A DNA stretch of 41,688 nucleotides. Origin: a virus. Made by a program: the position numbers and the translations under genes. The stretch is taken from the UHGV virus genome UHGV-0112358. One strand, 5' to 3'. Below the pieces are notes generated by a model. The model was not told the origin of the DNA and ran no database searches. It saw only the letters and a program-made list of their open reading frames with translations. This document shows, piece by piece, positions 7,367-11,810 of the stretch (position 1 is its first letter; every line of letters starts with the position of its first letter).

Positions 7367-8026
7367 TTAACTAAATGTCTCTTCAGGCCACTGGCTGGCG
7401 ATAACTTTCCCTACTACGGAACAGCTATCATTGCATGGGATCATTGGATATTGCGGGTTTAGTGGTTGTAGGAACACCTGACCGCTATCCCTGATCAGTT
7501 TCTTGAAGGTAAACTCGTCACCACCAAGTCTGGCTATGCAGAAATCACCTGGCTCAACAGCCTGCTCAGGGTCAACGAGAATTAACATCCCGTCAGGAAA
7601 GCTTGGCTTGGATCCTGTTGGTGCGGTCATGGAATTACCTTCAACTTCAAGCCAAAACGCACAATCACTGGCTTTTTTGGTTGTGCTGACCCATCTCTCC
7701 GCATCGCCTTTGGTAAAGGTTCTAAGCTCAGGCGAGAACATCCCGGCCTGAACATGAGAAAAAACAGGGTACTCATATTGTTTTTTAACGGGGGCAGATG
7801 AGTATTCGCCAACAGGTGAAAATGTACCGTCGTGGTTGAATGAGACGTTATCAATACCAAGGTATTTAAACACCACACCAATCTCGTCAAGAGATGGATG
7901 ACGAGATCCGCGCAACCAGTGACCAATTCCACCCTGCGTCATACCAAGCTCTTCAGCTAACTTCTCTTGAGTTATGCCGAGCTCTTTCATTCTGGATCTA
8001 GCCAGTTCATACCATTTCATTTTCAT
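7367..8026 (-). CDS. cI: CI-type prophage repressor (HTH N-terminus, lambda-like S24 C-terminal domain)
   Basis: C-terminal half near-identical to recalled lambda CI ([15 protein letters not shown]...GNSM...ASQWPEETF); N-terminal HTH differs; start MKMKW at 8026, track ORF extends to 8101. Confidence 0.9.
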
Positions 8027-8137
8027 ACCCTTATTATTACGCTCTGTACTAAAACCATCCATGCACAAGATGTATTTTTTGTTTGCATTCCAAAAGTACA
8101 TATCGTATTATTGTTTCATGGTTACTATGGAGGGCAT
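8027..8137. promoter_or_regulatory. OR region: pR promoter and candidate operators
   Basis: pR -35 TTGCAT (8083-8088), 17-nt spacer, -10 TATTAT (8106-8111); operator-like dyads ATTACGCTCTGTACT (8036-8050) and AGTACATATCGTATT (8095-8109). Confidence 0.45.
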
Positions 8138-8353
8138 ATGAGCAACCTACGAAAATATCGAGAGTCACTGAATATCTCTCAAACAACACTTGCTAAGGCG
8201 GTTGGATGCACACAGGGAGCTATCGGACATTGGGAATCTGGTCGTCGCTTCCCAGACCTTAAAACATGCCGTGCTCTTGTTGCGTGCCTAAACAAGTTAG
8301 GCGCAAAAGTCAGTCTTGATGACGTGTTCCCACCGGAACACAAAGCCGCTTAA
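8138..8353 (+). CDS. cro: Cro-like HTH repressor
   Basis: 71-aa HTH protein (ISQTTLAKAVGCTQGAIGHWESG) divergent from cI; SD GGAGGG; track ORF starts upstream at 7967. Confidence 0.75.
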   Translation: MSNLRKYRESLNISQTTLAKAVGCTQGAIGHWESGRRFPDLKTCRALVACLNKLGAKVSLDDVFPPEHKAA

Positions 8354-8363
8354 TAAGCGGATC

Positions 8364-8398
8364 CGCTCTTTATCAATCTGCACCGCCGACAACGCGGT
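8364..8398 (+). promoter_or_regulatory. nutR (boxA CGCTCTTTA, boxB ACCGCCGACAACGCGGT)
   Basis: boxA consensus 10 nt after cro stop, then hairpin with GACAA-type loop. Confidence 0.55.
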
Positions 8399-8462
8399 AA
8401 CTAATTAATCACTCATCGAAAGATGAGTATTAGTGATTATTTACCTATGGAAATAGTAAGAA

Positions 8463-8759
8463 ATGGAACAAACAAGTTACAGCAAACTATCACAGCGCGA
8501 CGTTGATCGCGCTGAAACAGATTTACTCATCAACCTGTCAACGCTTACACAGCGCGGTCTGGCAAAGATGATTGGCTGTCATGAATCGAAGATAAGCAGA
8601 ACGGACTGGAGATTTATTGCTTCGGTCTTGTGTGCTTTCGGAATGGCATCAGACATCAGTCCGATTAGCAGGGCTTTTAAGTATGCGCTTGATGGAATCA
8701 CAAAGAAAAAATCCCCGGTGGCCGCCGGGGACTCTAAGCAAATTGATATGCAATTCTGA
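8463..8759 (+). CDS. cII: CII-like transcriptional activator
   Basis: HTH core and C-terminus ...KKKSPVAAGDSKQIDMQF resembling recalled lambda CII (...RSEQIQMEF). Confidence 0.7.
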   Translation: MEQTSYSKLSQRDVDRAETDLLINLSTLTQRGLAKMIGCHESKISRTDWRFIASVLCAFGMASDISPISRAFKYALDGITKKKSPVAAGDSKQIDMQF

Positions 8760-8791
8760 GGGAATTACTGGATCAATCCACAGGAGTCATT

Positions 8792-9637
8792 ATGACAAAT
8801 ACAGCAAAAATACTCAACTTCGGCAGAGGTAACTTTGCCGAACAGGAGCTAAGAGTGGCTGATATCGATGATGGTTACACCAGATTCGCTAACGAGCTGC
8901 TGGAAGCTATCGCAAGTGCCGATTTAACCGCTCGCCAGTTGAAAGTTATGCTGGCCTACGTCCGGAAAACATATGGATTCAATAAGAAAACAGATCGAAT
9001 AGCCGATGAGCAAATTGCTCAGTTAACAGGACTGTCAAGGCAGAATGTTAACAAGGCTAAAAAAGAACTGATTTCAATGAATTGCCTGTTTATGGATGGA
9101 AATAAAATCGGTGTAAACAGGGAGGTATCTGCGTGGCAATTCAGCAAGTGTCTCCAAGTTAGCAACTTTGTCTCGAAGTTAGAGACAAAAAATGTCTCCA
9201 AATTAGAGACACTCAATGTCTCGAAGTTAGAGACACACAAAAGACATTCTTTAAAGACAAAAGAAAATATTAATAAACCCCCTATATCCCCCAAAAAAAT
9301 TTCTCAGAAGTTCGACCCGCTAGAAACAGAGTTGCCTGATTGGTTATCGGCAGAAACATGGTTGTCGTGGGTTACCTATCGCAAGGAGATAGGTAAGTCG
9401 ATCAAGTCTAAGCAAAGCGTCACTCAGGCTATCAACGTTCTAAGCAGAAGTCTGGAGAAGGGATATACACCTGAAGAAATTATAAACCAGAGCATCGCCA
9501 GTGGTTGGCAGGGGATTTTTGAACCCAAGACTCCAAAGGGGAAATCTCAACCGAGGCCGCAGCAGCGAGCTATGCAGGAAAACTTTGCCGCCAAAGATTA
9601 CGGGCAAACTGAAATGCCTTCATGGGCGCAGGAGTGA
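8792..9637 (+). CDS. O: replication initiator O (lambda-O-like N-terminal domain)
   Basis: MTNTAKILNFGRGNFA... matches recalled lambda O N-terminus; iterons inside the gene; C-terminal domain differs. Confidence 0.85.
   Translation: MTNTAKILNFGRGNFAEQELRVADIDDGYTRFANELLEAIASADLTARQLKVMLAYVRKTYGFNKKTDRIADEQIAQLTGLSRQNVNKAKKELISMNCLFMDGNKIGVNREVSAWQFSKCLQVSNFVSKLETKNVSKLETLNVSKLETHKRHSLKTKENINKPPISPKKISQKFDPLETELPDWLSAETWLSWVTYRKEIGKSIKSKQSVTQAINVLSRSLEKGYTPEEIINQSIASGWQGIFEPKTPKGKSQPRPQQRAMQENFAAKDYGQTEMPSWAQE
9149..9235 (+). repeat. origin iterons (ori) inside O
   Basis: TGTCTCGAAGTTAGAGACA at 9169, 9193, 9217 (24-bp period) plus degenerate copy at 9149; each palindromic TGTCTC/GAGACA; followed by A/T-rich stretch 9236-9300. 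Confidence 0.8.
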
Positions 9638-9639
9638 AC

Positions 9640-10485
9640 ATGACGCTGGATGAAAAGATCTCCCAACTGGAGAAAAAACTTGCAGAATTGAGTTCTCCGC
9701 CAATTGCTATCGAGCATACAGCTGTAGAAATTGGCACTGGCATCTGTGAAAAACATGGTGAGTTTGAGCAGCGTAACCGTTACTCGACTGGGCCAATTAA
9801 GTTTGCCTCAAGACCTAGCGAATGCCCGGAATGCATGAGAGATGAGCTTATTCGGCTACAGGCAGAGAAGATTAAAATCGACGAAGAATCACGTAAGCGC
9901 AATGTCGAGTTTCTGTTGAATAATCTTGATATTCCTGAACGATTCAAGGGTTGCACACTACAGAACTACGAGCCAGTCAACGACGATGCAAAGAGAGTGC
10001 TCAGGGTGTGTCAGGCATACGCCAGCAAATGGCCTGAGAGGTTACAGAAAGGCGGTGGGCTGGTTATGTGCGGAAAGCCTGGTACTGGAAAGAATCATCT
10101 TGCACTGGCTATCGCCCGGCACGCAATTACGGAACATCAAAGCTCAGCTATTTTCACAACGGCGCTGAAAATTGCCAGAGAATATAAATCAACATGGTCT
10201 AAAAACTCCACCCGCACAGAGGATGAAGTGATCCGACAGTTCACTAAACCTGACCTGCTAATTATCGATGAGGTTGGTGTGCAGTTTGGAAGCGAGGCGG
10301 AAAAGATGATCATGTTCGAAATCATCAACACCCGCTACGAGTGCATGAAGCCAACAATCCTGATTAGCAACCAGAGCAAAGATGAACTGTCTGCATTCAT
10401 TGGTGAGCGTGTTATTGACAGGATGAATGATGGCGGCGGGTGCACTCTTGCGTTTACATGGGATAGTTACAGGAGCAGATCGTGA
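9640..10485 (+). CDS. DnaC/IstB-type helicase loader ATPase
   Basis: Walker A MCGKPGTGKNHLA, Walker B LLIIDEVG; ATG 9640 with SD AGGAGTG; track ORF starts 9622. Confidence 0.85.
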   Translation: MTLDEKISQLEKKLAELSSPPIAIEHTAVEIGTGICEKHGEFEQRNRYSTGPIKFASRPSECPECMRDELIRLQAEKIKIDEESRKRNVEFLLNNLDIPERFKGCTLQNYEPVNDDAKRVLRVCQAYASKWPERLQKGGGLVMCGKPGTGKNHLALAIARHAITEHQSSAIFTTALKIAREYKSTWSKNSTRTEDEVIRQFTKPDLLIIDEVGVQFGSEAEKMIMFEIINTRYECMKPTILISNQSKDELSAFIGERVIDRMNDGGGCTLAFTWDSYRSRS

Positions 10486-10772
10486 CTGGAAAAGAAATCA
10501 TCCTGGAATATCTGAAAACTCATGAACAATTCTCCCCACATGAATTAGCACTGATCACCGGAATACCAAATAACAGAATCGCTCAAGCAGCAAGGCATAT
10601 GGTGAAACAAGGGAATTTGAGTGTTGTTGAGCGTAAGTGGAAGACGGTTATTTATGCAAAACGCAAAGTGAAGAAGGAGCCAATTAAAAGAAATCCAGAT
10701 GGTACGGGGTGGGGATGTGCAAATCCAATGACGGCGTTTATTAATAGGGCGCTTATGGAGGTAAGGCAATGA
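10482..10772 (+). CDS. hypothetical protein (possible winged-helix)
   Basis: 96-aa ORF, GTG start overlapping upstream stop. Confidence 0.45.
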   Translation: MTGKEIILEYLKTHEQFSPHELALITGIPNNRIAQAARHMVKQGNLSVVERKWKTVIYAKRKVKKEPIKRNPDGTGWGCANPMTAFINRALMEVRQ

Positions 10773-10798
10773 CCATCTACATCACTGAGCTAATAACA

Positions 10799-10826
10799 GG
10801 CCTGCTGGTAATCGCAGGCCTTTTTA
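10799..10826 (+). terminator. rho-independent terminator (tR2-like) before nin region
   Basis: GGCCTGC-tggtaatc-GCAGGCC followed by TTTTT. Confidence 0.6.
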
Positions 10827-10845
10827 TTTGGGGGAGAGGGAAGTC

Positions 10846-11286
10846 ATGAAAAAACTAACCTTTGAAATTCGATCTCCAGCACATCAGCAAAACGCTATTC
10901 ACGCGGTACAGCAAATTCTTCCAGACCCAACCAAACCAATCGTAGTAACCATTCAGGAACGCAACCGCAGCTTAGACCAAAATCGGAAGCTTTGGGCTTG
11001 CCTTGGTGACGTCTCTCGTCAGGTTGAATGGCATGGTCGCTGGCTGGATGCAGAAAGCTGGAAGTGTGTGTTTACCGCAGCATTAAAGCAGCAGGACGTT
11101 GTTCCTAACCTTGCCGGGAATGGCTTTGTGGTAATAGGCCAGTCAACCAGCAGGATGCGTGTAAGCGAATTTGCGGAGCTATTAGAGCTTATACAGGCAT
11201 TCGGTACAGAGCGTGGCGTTAAGTGGTCAGACGAAGCGCGACTGGCTCTCGAATGGAAAGCGCGATGGGGAGATCGGGCTGCATGA
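10846..11286 (+). CDS. ninB: NinB (Orf) recombination mediator
   Basis: MKKLTFEIRSPAHQQNAIHAVQQIL... near-identical to recalled lambda NinB; SD GGAGAGGG. Confidence 0.85.
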   Translation: MKKLTFEIRSPAHQQNAIHAVQQILPDPTKPIVVTIQERNRSLDQNRKLWACLGDVSRQVEWHGRWLDAESWKCVFTAALKQQDVVPNLAGNGFVVIGQSTSRMRVSEFAELLELIQAFGTERGVKWSDEARLALEWKARWGDRAA

Positions 11287-11810
11287 CTATCAAATCAAAT
11301 ACGCCAGCACACGACAAGGACTGCTGGCAAACGCCGCTTTGGCTTTTTGATGCACTGGATATTGAGTTTGGATTCTGGCTGGATTCGGCAGCGAGCGACA
11401 AAAATGCTCTGTGTGCTCACTGGCTAACTGAGGCCGACGACGCGCTCAATTCTGAGTGGGTAAGCCACGGTGCAATCTGGAATAACCCACCGTACAGCAA
11501 TATCAGGCCGTGGGTGGAAAAAGCTGCTGAGCAGTGCATACAACAGCGACAGACGGTAGTTATGCTTGTGCCAGAGGATATGTCAGTCGGATGGTTCAGC
11601 AAGGCTCTGGAGAGTGTCGACGAAGTTCGCATTATCACTGATGGACGGATTAATTTTATCGAACCATCGACAGGGCTGGAGAAGAAGGGAAACAGCAAAG
11701 GCTCCATGCTGCTGATTTGGCGACCGTTCATCAGTCCTCGACGGATGTTTACTACCGTATCCAAAGCGGCATTGATGGCGATCGGGCAGGGTGTCAGGAG
11801 GGCGGCATGA
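11283..11810 (+). CDS. phage-type DNA N6-adenine methyltransferase
   Basis: [14 protein letters not shown]...IWNNPPYS motif; start overlaps ninB stop (ATGA). Confidence 0.75.

Follow-up and report, generated by a model that had tools for sequence, protein, structure and literature searches.

A lambdoid replication cassette combining an O-type initiator with a DnaC-type helicase loader, and a short initiator tail that appears to follow the loader class

In lambdoid genomes, modules of the P22 gp18/gp12 type combine an O-type initiator with a partner other than P; this partner is a DnaB-family helicase, in contrast to the loader found at the locus described here. Types of initiator/helicase-loader modules are treated by Weigel & Seitz (2006), and partners of the DnaB family have been reported for HK022 and Sp5 (PMC2669165). 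In E. coli O157 Sakai, the prophages Sp4, Sp10, and Sp12 each have an O protein accompanied by a loader of the DnaC type (Asadulghani 2009, PMC2669165) and, by that description, have the same combination as the window, that is, the whole stretch of viral DNA analyzed (UHGV-0112358; 41,688 nucleotides). As an experimental precedent for an O plus DnaC plasmid, phiP27 was rejected, as it has an unrelated L17 together with a DnaC-like protein and a helicase; the O-protein work referring to "P27" concerns O with lambda-like replication regions (PMC7466680).

The likeness to lambda itself is extensive. The origin lies within O at the same position and comprises four palindromic iterons and a homologous A/T-rich stretch, and the module is bordered upstream by cII and the oop region and downstream by ren-like and ninB genes, giving the lambda gene order with P replaced (cII-O-loader-ren-like-ninB). 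The differences concern the iteron sequence (TCCCTC...GAGGGA in lambda versus TGTCTC...GAGACA in the window), the C-terminal half of O, which is unrelated, and the partner, which is P in lambda and an AAA+ DnaC-type ATPase here. A lambda O-P module has a lambda-type O C-terminal domain, which is the half that binds P, and a PF06992 partner, and the window module has neither. Furthermore, when a known O-P pair matching both the C-terminal domain and the partner was looked for, none was found, which leaves standing the earlier reading of a lambda-O-like iteron binder accompanied by a different kind of partner. The coordinates of the features are collected in Table 1.

Table 1. Features of the replication module, in positions of the window
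Feature	Position	Strand	Basis
O-like replication initiator gene, 281 aa, contains the origin	8792..9637	+	ORF; PF04492; TIGR01610; PHROG 678
N-terminal origin-binding (winged-helix) domain, aa 1-115	8792..9136	+	58% identity to lambda O
Iteron array: 9149-9167 (degenerate), 9169-9187, 9193-9211, 9217-9235	9149..9235	.	Spacing 20/24/24
A/T-rich, A-skewed stretch, presumed DNA-unwinding element	9240..9300	.	GC 20-27.5%; aligns with ori-lambda
O C-terminal three-helix domain, ~aa 180-245, LPDWL...W..W..YR...GWQGIFEPK	9329..9526	+	Profile clusters; AlphaFold2
19-aa C-terminal tail ENFAAKDYGQTEMPSWAQE ("tail A"), candidate loader-docking peptide	9578..9634	+	Co-inheritance; PHROG 17247
DnaC-type AAA+ helicase-loader gene, 281 aa	9640..10485	+	6qel; PF01695; PHROG 50
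Cys/His motif C36-x2-H39-G ... C62-P-x-C65, putative zinc-binding site	9745..9834	+	Conservation
AAA+ core: Walker A GKPGTGKNH, Walker B DLLIIDEVG, ERVIDRM arginine	10057..10416	+	Invariant vs DnaC

The module is an ordinary, already catalogued lambda-like replication cassette of O plus a DnaC-type loader and is not new. At the DNA level it shares 98.9% identity with Escherichia phage N7 (MH717096), in which the two genes (ORF41/42) are annotated as "replication protein O" and "ATP-binding protein." The closest annotated counterpart in Escherichia phage mEpX1 is gp46, with 98% identity to the O protein of the window; it adjoins gp47, a "DnaC-like helicase loader." The iterons and A/T-rich stretch of mEpX1 are identical to those of the window, whereas its loader has an AAA+ core that is 94% identical but differs in allele over the first ~95 residues, where identity drops to 31%. 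The module is carried by 45 complete genomes of E. coli and was also found in 60 contigs of IMG/VR. The preliminary description had called it a hybrid; the parts were described correctly, but the whole belongs to a standard type with many members and existing annotations rather than being an unusual chimera. Insertions of IS2 or ISKpn26 within the module in some E. coli genomes would fit a decaying, nonfunctional remnant of a cryptic prophage, a reading that we consider very unlikely and have rejected, given that both open reading frames in the window are intact, with good ribosome-binding sites and three perfect iterons, and that the near-identity to the plaque-forming isolate N7 is accompanied by intact, nearly identical modules in the likewise plaque-forming isolates mEpX1 and CurroJimenez and by intact counterparts in phages Dewey and Louie.

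By its profile matches, the initiator of the window is a member of the lambda-O-type family (PF04492/TIGR01610). Its ATG is preceded by AGGAG 5 nt upstream, the Pfam model Phage_rep_O (PF04492) covers aa 21-115 (E 5e-36; 123.6 bits against a cutoff of 28.7), TIGR01610 scores 108.8 bits (cutoff, 45.5), and PHROG 678, "replication initiation O-like," matches over the full length (E 2e-82). In comparison with lambda O, aa 1-115 were 58% identical (BLASTP, E 3e-44) and the C-terminal domain was without similarity, which bears out the proposal of a lambda-O-like N-terminal domain.

Within this gene, three exact 19-bp iterons, TGTCTC(G/C)AA(G/A)TTAGAGACA, start at 9169, 9193, and 9217, that is, every 24 bp, and the array has a tandem-repeat score of 109 (TRF). 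Each copy consists of a 6-bp inverted repeat flanking a 7-bp spacer. The fourth copy, at 9149, is degenerate, with three mismatches, and lies only 20 bp upstream of the 9169 copy, so the initial account of four in-gene iterons with a 24-bp period was right for the three exact copies and slightly overstated for the set. The resulting start-to-start spacing of 20/24/24 compares with 20/24/23 in lambda. Outside the array, the iteron motif was not found anywhere in the 41.7-kb window; the chance expectation is 0.04 matches, and 0 of 100 shuffles reached 7. The VSKLET peptide repeats noticed earlier are, as had been said, the iterons in translation. The A/T-rich stretch reported to follow them is also real: the GC content falls to 20-27.5% at 9240-9299, with a strong excess of A on the plus strand, and this region is homologous to that of ori-lambda, with stretch and iterons aligning in register (e.g., AAAGACAAAAGAAAAT vs AAAGAAAAAAGAAAAG). 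Searches for DnaA boxes within 8700-10500 and for Rfam families in 7900-10900 gave no match. The succession of in-gene palindromic iterons and an A/T-rich stretch is that of a predicted lambda-type origin.

The second gene had been described as encoding a DnaC/IstB-type ATPase rather than a lambda-P-like protein, and this is what the comparisons indicate. Residues 79-280 match E. coli DnaC (PDB 6qel) with an E value of 4e-32, PHROG 50, "DnaC-like helicase loader," matches with an E value of 2e-84, and no similarity to lambda P was detected. The Pfam matches are to IstB_IS21 (PF01695, aa 140-259; E 4e-18, 66.3 bits, cutoff 24.1) and Bac_DnaA, and none is to Phage_lambda_P (PF06992). The name of the top Pfam match could suggest an IstB-like helper ATPase left by an IS21-type transposon instead of a loader. 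This alternative is exceedingly improbable and was rejected: the NCBIfam model of IS21 helpers (NF038214) gives 78.8 bits, below its cutoff of 200, compared with 154 bits for the DnaC model; the match to IstB (8e-11) is far behind that to DnaC, the nearest solved relative; no IstA or transposase gene adjoins and no IS ends are present; and among 60 related loci, the gene occupies the place of P in lambda in 58. With 154.4 bits, the loader remains below the cutoff of 357 of the DnaC equivalog model (NF005931), and by this measure it is a phage paralogue and not the host dnaC.

Judged by its core motifs (Walker A, Walker B, and the arginine motif), the loader is a DnaC/DnaI-family AAA+ protein of the initiator/loader clade, homologous to E. 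coli DnaC across the AAA+ core. The N-terminal DnaB-binding domain of the DnaC type is absent, the alignment beginning at DnaC residue 43; in its place, the first 78 residues contain a coiled region and a C-x2-H...C-P-x-C motif. The latter is invariant in nine divergent representatives, including the mEpX1 allele that is 31% identical in this region, and is a putative zinc-binding site. A single-sequence structure model of the loader reached a pLDDT of 34. As for the start codon, an alternative ATG at 9622 would give 287 aa, and AGGAG at 9630-9634 favors 9640; N7 is annotated from 9622, and Dewey is annotated from the equivalent of 9640.

The window probably holds the module by which a lambdoid phage or prophage of E. 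coli replicates, with an initiator acting together with a DnaC-type loader, the mechanism being read by homology. Transcription from pR would run through cII into O, whose dimers would use their lambda-O-type N-terminal domain to bind the four palindromic iterons within the gene and, in the nucleoprotein complex so formed, would destabilize the neighboring A/T-rich DNA; homology and the origin architecture in register with ori-lambda are the grounds for these steps. The phage AAA+ loader would then capture the host DnaB hexamer, join the O-origin complex, and set DnaB on the opened strands, as expected from its homology to E. coli DnaC, with the last ~19 residues of O most likely contacting the loader. 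Since the partner is an AAA+ DnaC-type ATPase and not P, ATP hydrolysis, in place of DnaK/DnaJ/GrpE, would be expected to drive release of the loader.

The C-terminal half of O was correctly described as differing from lambda O: BLASTP found no similarity past aa 115, and hhalign of the C-terminal domain profile against the lambda O C-terminal half gave a probability of 0.09%. A homologue search with this half returned only 14 near-identical fragments, and its three-helix domain belongs to a family of 3077 representative clusters (E<=1e-3). The AlphaFold2 model of the domain has three helices with a pLDDT of about 91, and neither a Pfam model nor a PDB entry matched it. It occurs fused to HTH_36, Phage_rep_O, DUF1376, or DnaD_N N-terminal domains, and members of the family adjoin either DnaC-type or lambda-P-type partners. 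The logic implied in the preliminary description, that the C-terminal domain is different because the partner is different, therefore fails, as the same family also adjoins lambda-P-type partners. The three-helix domain is a generic module that may hold single-stranded DNA in the way the C-terminal domain of DnaT does.

What follows the loader class appears to be a much shorter element. PHROG 17247 matches O at tail A only, and this tail is the sole part common to the O of the window and the initiator of phage Dewey, which is otherwise unrelated and lacks the three-helix domain but is encoded upstream of a loader that is 99% identical. In a survey of 304 loci (four seeded scans of one viral collection and a few look-ups), tail A was found with a DnaC-type loader of the window's subtype in 137/137 loci, tail B with a DnaC-type partner in 128/129, tail C with lambda P in 13/13, and tail L with lambda P in 14/14, although these loci are mostly enterobacterial and phylogenetically non-independent, so that there are fewer independent events than a perfect association implies. 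DnaC-type loaders thus seem to be paired with tails A, B, and D, and lambda P seems to be paired with tails C and L. Between two of the loci, L203 and L223, the three-helix cores share 97% identity, yet the tails differ and so do the partners, one being DnaC-type and the other P-type. These observations suggest that only the last ~19 residues of O, and not the rest of its C-terminal half, track the loader class. In lambda, O cut to 294 of its 299 aa is inactive (Hayes 2018, PMC6022878); the lambda O C terminus carries the class-L motif NTDWIYGVDL.

Differences in the tail-coding DNA are distributed over the three codon positions as 1001:858:5348, with synonymous changes dominating, and the residues E.F..KDYG.T..P.WA of tail A are invariant. 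This pattern indicates purifying selection on tail A at the protein level; it argues for a function of the peptide and says nothing about what the peptide binds. As judged from co-inheritance, the contact of O with the loader is most likely made by these last ~19 residues and not by the three-helix domain. A rather unlikely alternative is that the loader-helicase complex is recruited by the three-helix domain or by O touching DnaB directly, with the tail conserved for another reason (folding, host contact, or translational coupling) or traveling with the loader only as part of a recombination joint. The tail-coding DNA abuts the ribosome-binding site of the loader, whose Shine-Dalgarno sequence it contains, and overlaps the alternative start at 9622, so linkage at such a joint would also produce co-inheritance. 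Moreover, no single tail comes near the three-helix domain in breadth of occurrence or in conservation, and tail A is unchanged across loader alleles whose N termini are only 31% identical, so a docking site on the loader, if any, is not obvious. However, the same loader serves the Dewey initiator, which has no three-helix domain; nearly identical cores occur with both partner types; and the prevalence of synonymous changes in the tail, with its invariant residues, also speaks against this alternative.

The preferred reading, in which the tail contacts the loader, may extend to the dnaTC operon of E. coli, where dnaT is directly upstream of dnaC. Relatives of the window O with class-B tails end in RDVNxxSxPDxxIPxGFRG, the same motif as the DnaT C terminus, and precede DnaC-like loaders with the classical DnaC N-terminal domain; the window O differs in having tail A, not tail B, and its loader in having the Cys/His N-terminal domain. 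With phmmer, DnaT (aa 84-179) and the class-B relatives aligned end to end, with most of the score coming from the tail. Homology between the three-helix domain and the DnaT C-terminal domain was considered and found unsupported: PF17948, the model of the latter, matched DnaT and none of the phage initiators; hhalign of the diverse alignment A4 against DnaT gave a probability of 0.6%; similarity between the A4 HMM and DnaT over the three-helix domain was not significant; a profile search of PDB sequences gave no DnaT match for A4 and tail-only matches for A8; and Foldseek of the AlphaFold2 C-terminal model against the PDB gave no DnaT match (best E, 4.5). Consequently, likeness to DnaT is claimed for the tail only. 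DopC, from Cellvibrionales/Oceanospirillales, has been described as an O-like HTH N-terminal domain with a "DnaT_C" C-terminal domain (HHpred) and adjoins a helicase loader (Brezellec 2017, PMC5509034). DopC has the general architecture of the window O family, but DopC/DopE are chromosomal, are without iterons, and have a lambda-P-like partner.

As stated, the finding of this module is of little weight, for lambdoid replication modules of this class are known and this one is routine among them. Its value for annotation lies in the exact predicted origin coordinates, the likely true start of the loader, and the recognition of a DnaC-type loader in what N7-like records call an "ATP-binding protein." The comparative result on the tails may be more useful. 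We tentatively propose, as an idea somewhat short of an even chance, that the ends of lambdoid initiators (~15-20 residues) are portable docking peptides specific to the loader class, swapped with the loader gene independently of the origin-binding and three-helix domains. Since the class-B peptide is that of the DnaT C terminus and dnaT lies upstream of dnaC, the DnaT tail could be what recruits DnaB-DnaC to the preprimosome of PriA, PriB, and DnaT, and dnaT-dnaC could have arisen by domestication of an initiator C terminus together with its loader. How DnaB-DnaC is recruited in replication restart is still listed as unknown in a 2026 structural paper (PMC13377028). If the tail is a loader-docking element, it would explain the positions of the mosaic joints in these modules, provide a simple rule for predicting which initiators and loaders are compatible, and make the conserved DnaT tail a candidate for the recruitment of DnaB-DnaC in replication restart.

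The replication module of the window is an ordinary, already annotated lambdoid module of the O plus DnaC type. Residues 21-115 of the initiator (O) correspond to Pfam Phage_rep_O (E 5e-36; score 123.6 bits, cut-off 28.7), the NCBIfam model of the O N-terminal domain is also matched, and PHROG 678, "replication initiation O-like", matches across the whole protein. O shares 58% identity with lambda O over aa 1-115 (E 3e-44), and past aa 115 the two show no similarity (profile comparison probability, 0.09%). The loader matches the Pfam AAA+ models IstB_IS21 and Bac_DnaA, PHROG 50, "DnaC-like helicase loader" (E 2e-84), and, through aa 79-280, E. coli DnaC (PDB 6qel; E 4e-32), with no similarity to lambda P. 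The preliminary description had proposed a hybrid of a lambda-O-like N-terminal domain, a C-terminal domain unlike that of lambda O, and a DnaC/IstB-type partner in place of a P-like one. These observations are confirmed, and no match to a known O-P pair emerged from comparison with lambda O and P.

The gene order, with cII before O and a Ren-like/MarR-like ORF and ninB after the loader, is that of lambda except that P is replaced. On the minus strand lies a homologue of the lambda oop antisense RNA with its pO promoter, its terminator placed inside the end of cII; the region is 90% identical to that of lambda, and substitutions in the stem of the terminator are compensatory. Comparison with Rfam gave no matching family.

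Coordinates of the replication module, its neighbors, and the compared Dewey initiator (window positions unless stated otherwise)
Feature	Position	Strand	Remarks
CI-like repressor ORF	7367-8101	-	neighboring gene
cII	8463-8759		upstream of O; PF05269
oop-like RNA with pO promoter	8703-8817 (approximate)	-	
oop-like terminator	8735..8708		strong hairpin and T-run, within the end of cII
Promoter-like TTGAGT-17-CATAAT	8817..8789	-	oop/pO region
O-like initiator ORF	8792-9637	+	281 aa
Iteron array	9149-9235		starts 9149 (degenerate), 9169, 9193, 9217
A/T-rich stretch	9240-9299		20-27.5% GC, strong A excess
Loader ORF	9622 or 9640 to 10485	+	287 or 281 aa, by start
C-x2-H-G...C-P-x-C motif	9745-9834		loader aa 36-65, N-terminal extension
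Ren-like/MarR-like ORF	10482-10772	+	directly after loader; PHROG 1687/142
ORF with N7 counterpart	11223-11810	+	counterpart annotated DNA N-6-adenine methyltransferase
Dewey initiator	L003 1673-2560		ends in the exact 19-residue tail of the window's O

The predicted origin lies inside the O gene. Three exact 19-bp palindromic iterons, TGTCTC(G/C)AA(G/A)TTAGAGACA (TRF score, 109), are followed by an A/T-rich stretch, and their translation yields the VSKLET peptide repeats, both as originally described. Of the four iterons first described with a 24-bp period, these three are clean copies at that period; the fourth is degenerate, with 3 mismatches, and starts 20 bp before the next copy. The resulting spacing of 20/24/24 is close to the 20/24/23 of the annotated lambda iterons, and an alignment with ori-lambda places the two sets of iterons in register and shows clear homology of the A/T-rich stretch. 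The motif was not found elsewhere in the window (0.04 matches expected by chance), and neither was a DnaA box with up to one mismatch within 8700-10500.

In phage databases, as well as in bacterial genomes, the same combination recurs. Escherichia phage N7 is 98.9% identical over the 1.7-kb module, annotated there as "replication protein O" and "ATP-binding protein," and phage mEpX1 matches 84% of the module at 92.7%, with an O protein 98% identical to that of the window; its two genes are annotated "replication protein" (Phage_rep_O) and, for the partner, "DnaC-like helicase loader." In 45 complete E. coli genomes, 80% or more of the module is present, in many of them at 99% or more; some prophage copies, in NZ_CP025881, NZ_CP025869, NZ_CP154406, and NZ_CP154401, are broken by IS2 or ISKpn26 insertions. 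Among 60 IMG/VR contigs with the C-terminal half of O, a DnaC-type loader is the next gene in 58, the remaining 2 end before the next gene, and a P-type gene follows in none. Furthermore, three lambdoid prophages of O157 Sakai carry DnaC-type helicase loaders beside O (Asadulghani et al. 2009, PMC2669165), the module classification of Weigel & Seitz (2006) is cited for initiator and helicase-loader types, and Brezellec et al. (2016, PMC5109545) credit Wrobel & Wegrzyn (2002) with the idea that dnaC came from such phage genes. Because of these records and precedents, the "hybrid" is a standard, already known module type, so that this interpretation stands for every part described but not as a novelty. 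The window has the typical mosaic make-up of a lambdoid phage or prophage of E. coli; the best matches to its first 25 kb (1-25000) are N7, CurroJimenez, HZ41, IME10, and Louie, and deposited phages cover at most 46% of that part. IME10 and mEpX2 share flanking genes with the window and have different replication partners (DnaB-like or P).

The loader retains the Walker A, Walker B, and arginine motifs of the DnaC AAA+ core without change, but it is not the orthologue of host DnaC, scoring 154 bits against the equivalog cut-off of 357. Since the alignment begins at DnaC residue 43, the loader differs from E. coli DnaC in lacking the N-terminal DnaB-binding domain. In its place are about 78 residues with a Cys/His motif that nine divergent representatives, the mEpX1 allele among them, all retain unchanged. 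The region circulates as two alleles, 31% identical to each other, joined to an AAA+ core that is 94% identical. This invariance across divergent alleles suggests a putative zinc-binding helicase-interaction domain; such a domain is known in DnaI. Regarding the start codon, the N7 record uses the equivalent of ATG 9622, overlapping O, and that of phage Dewey the equivalent of 9640. The latter is probably the true start because it alone has a Shine-Dalgarno sequence, AGGAG, 5 nt upstream, in the same geometry as at the start of O. By homology with lambda and DnaC, O dimers would bind the palindromic iterons through the N-terminal domain, the complex, aided by rightward transcription, would open the A/T-rich DNA, and the loader would bind host DnaB and then deliver it.

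An exhaustive search with O aa 165-281 returned 3,077 representative clusters at E<=1e-3, sharing the core LPDWL..x4..W..W..YR...KP.T......L.....G..P..(I/V)I..SI.NGWQGLF.PK. AlphaFold2, given a 50-sequence alignment, predicts a three-helix unit (pLDDT about 91) that corresponds to no Pfam model and, by sequence or fold, to no solved structure. Its N-terminal partners in 101 members include HTH_36 (21), Phage_rep_O (17), DUF1376 (17), and DnaD_N (2), among others, a diversity that points to a shuffled, generic "initiator C-domain." Nor is the domain specific for DnaC-type partners: Phage_lambda_P follows it in two family proteins (P0029, with Phage_rep_O, and P0030, with HTH_36), and IstB/DnaC-type genes follow in two others (P0048 and P0032).

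The partner instead tracks the residues after the conserved GLF.PK. We classified these tails and identified the next ORF at 304 loci, obtained from IMG/VR scans seeded with four queries and from look-ups; the loci are not independent, although each major class includes 11-29 distinct 66-residue cores. Tail A (...ENFAxKDYGxTExPxWAxE), that of the window, precedes a DnaC-type loader of the window's subtype at 137/137 loci. Tail B (...RDVNxxSxPDxxIPxGFRG) precedes DnaC-type loaders at 128 loci, which have the classical N-terminal domain of E. coli DnaC and are closest to that protein; at one further locus it precedes a short ORF. Lambda-P-type partners follow tails C (HWN..W..FI; 13/13) and L (...NTDW(A/I)YGV..; 14/14), the latter being the motif in which lambda O itself ends (LDLTNTDWIYGVDL), and a DnaC-type partner follows the single tail D (FIPEDF). 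In two loci with three-helix cores 97% identical, the sequences diverge just past GLFKPKF: L203 has the DnaT-like tail B and a DnaC-type partner, and L223 the lambda-O-like tail L and a lambda-P-type partner. The break between the domain and the tail is thus a clean mosaic joint.

The initiator of Dewey has no similarity to O, no three-helix domain, and no Pfam match, and carries its own in-gene direct repeats (CTGATTCCCTTAACCTGATTC, twice, encoding SLNLIPDSLNLIPDSL); it nevertheless shares the tail and is followed by a loader 99% identical to that of the window. PHROG 17247 matches O in the tail only. A comparison of 39 distinct coding sequences for tail A gives differences of 1001:858:5348 at the three codon positions, with E.F..KDYG.T..P.WA unchanged throughout, so that selection acts on the peptide as well as on the loader's overlapping ribosome-binding site. 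Lambda O loses its activity when truncated from 299 to 294 residues, whereas it tolerates a long tag at the C terminus (PMC6022878). From the tail-partner tracking, the L203/L223 pair, Dewey, the codon data, and the lambda O truncation, we infer that the tail is the loader-docking element, a reading to which we give about an even chance; in the main alternative, the tail only lies at the recombination joint and the loader is contacted elsewhere.

E. coli DnaT ends, over its last ~20 residues, in the motif of tail B. A class-B profile retrieves DnaT chains from the PDB (E 2e-4 to 1e-3) via the tail only, and in phmmer the alignment of DnaT aa 84-179 to some class-B initiators runs end to end, with modest scores and with PDW and ALRxPxxTE in common. 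The C-domain of the window and class B are, by hhalign (probability 100%, E 8.5e-47), clearly one family; profile, fold, and Pfam tests gave no significant match between the three-helix domain and DnaT at the domain level. An HHpred "DnaT_C" domain was reported in DopC, an O-like protein encoded beside a P-like loader (Brezellec et al. 2017, PMC5509034), and the O-like plus DnaT_C architecture is therefore already published. In E. coli K-12 (L066), dnaT lies directly upstream of dnaC, and class-B prophage initiators (L231-L310) always have a DnaC-like loader with the classical N-terminal domain as the following gene. The shared tail and this adjacency suggest that dnaT-dnaC is a domesticated pair of initiator C terminus and loader. 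A 2026 cryo-EM study (PMC13377028) shows filaments of the DnaT C-terminal domain on single-stranded DNA of the lagging strand and states that the mode of DnaB/DnaC recruitment is still unknown; the DnaT tail is a candidate for bringing in DnaB/DnaC at this step. The module as first described is of low interest, and the tail-partner rule, with its echo in DnaT, is a lead worth testing at the bench.
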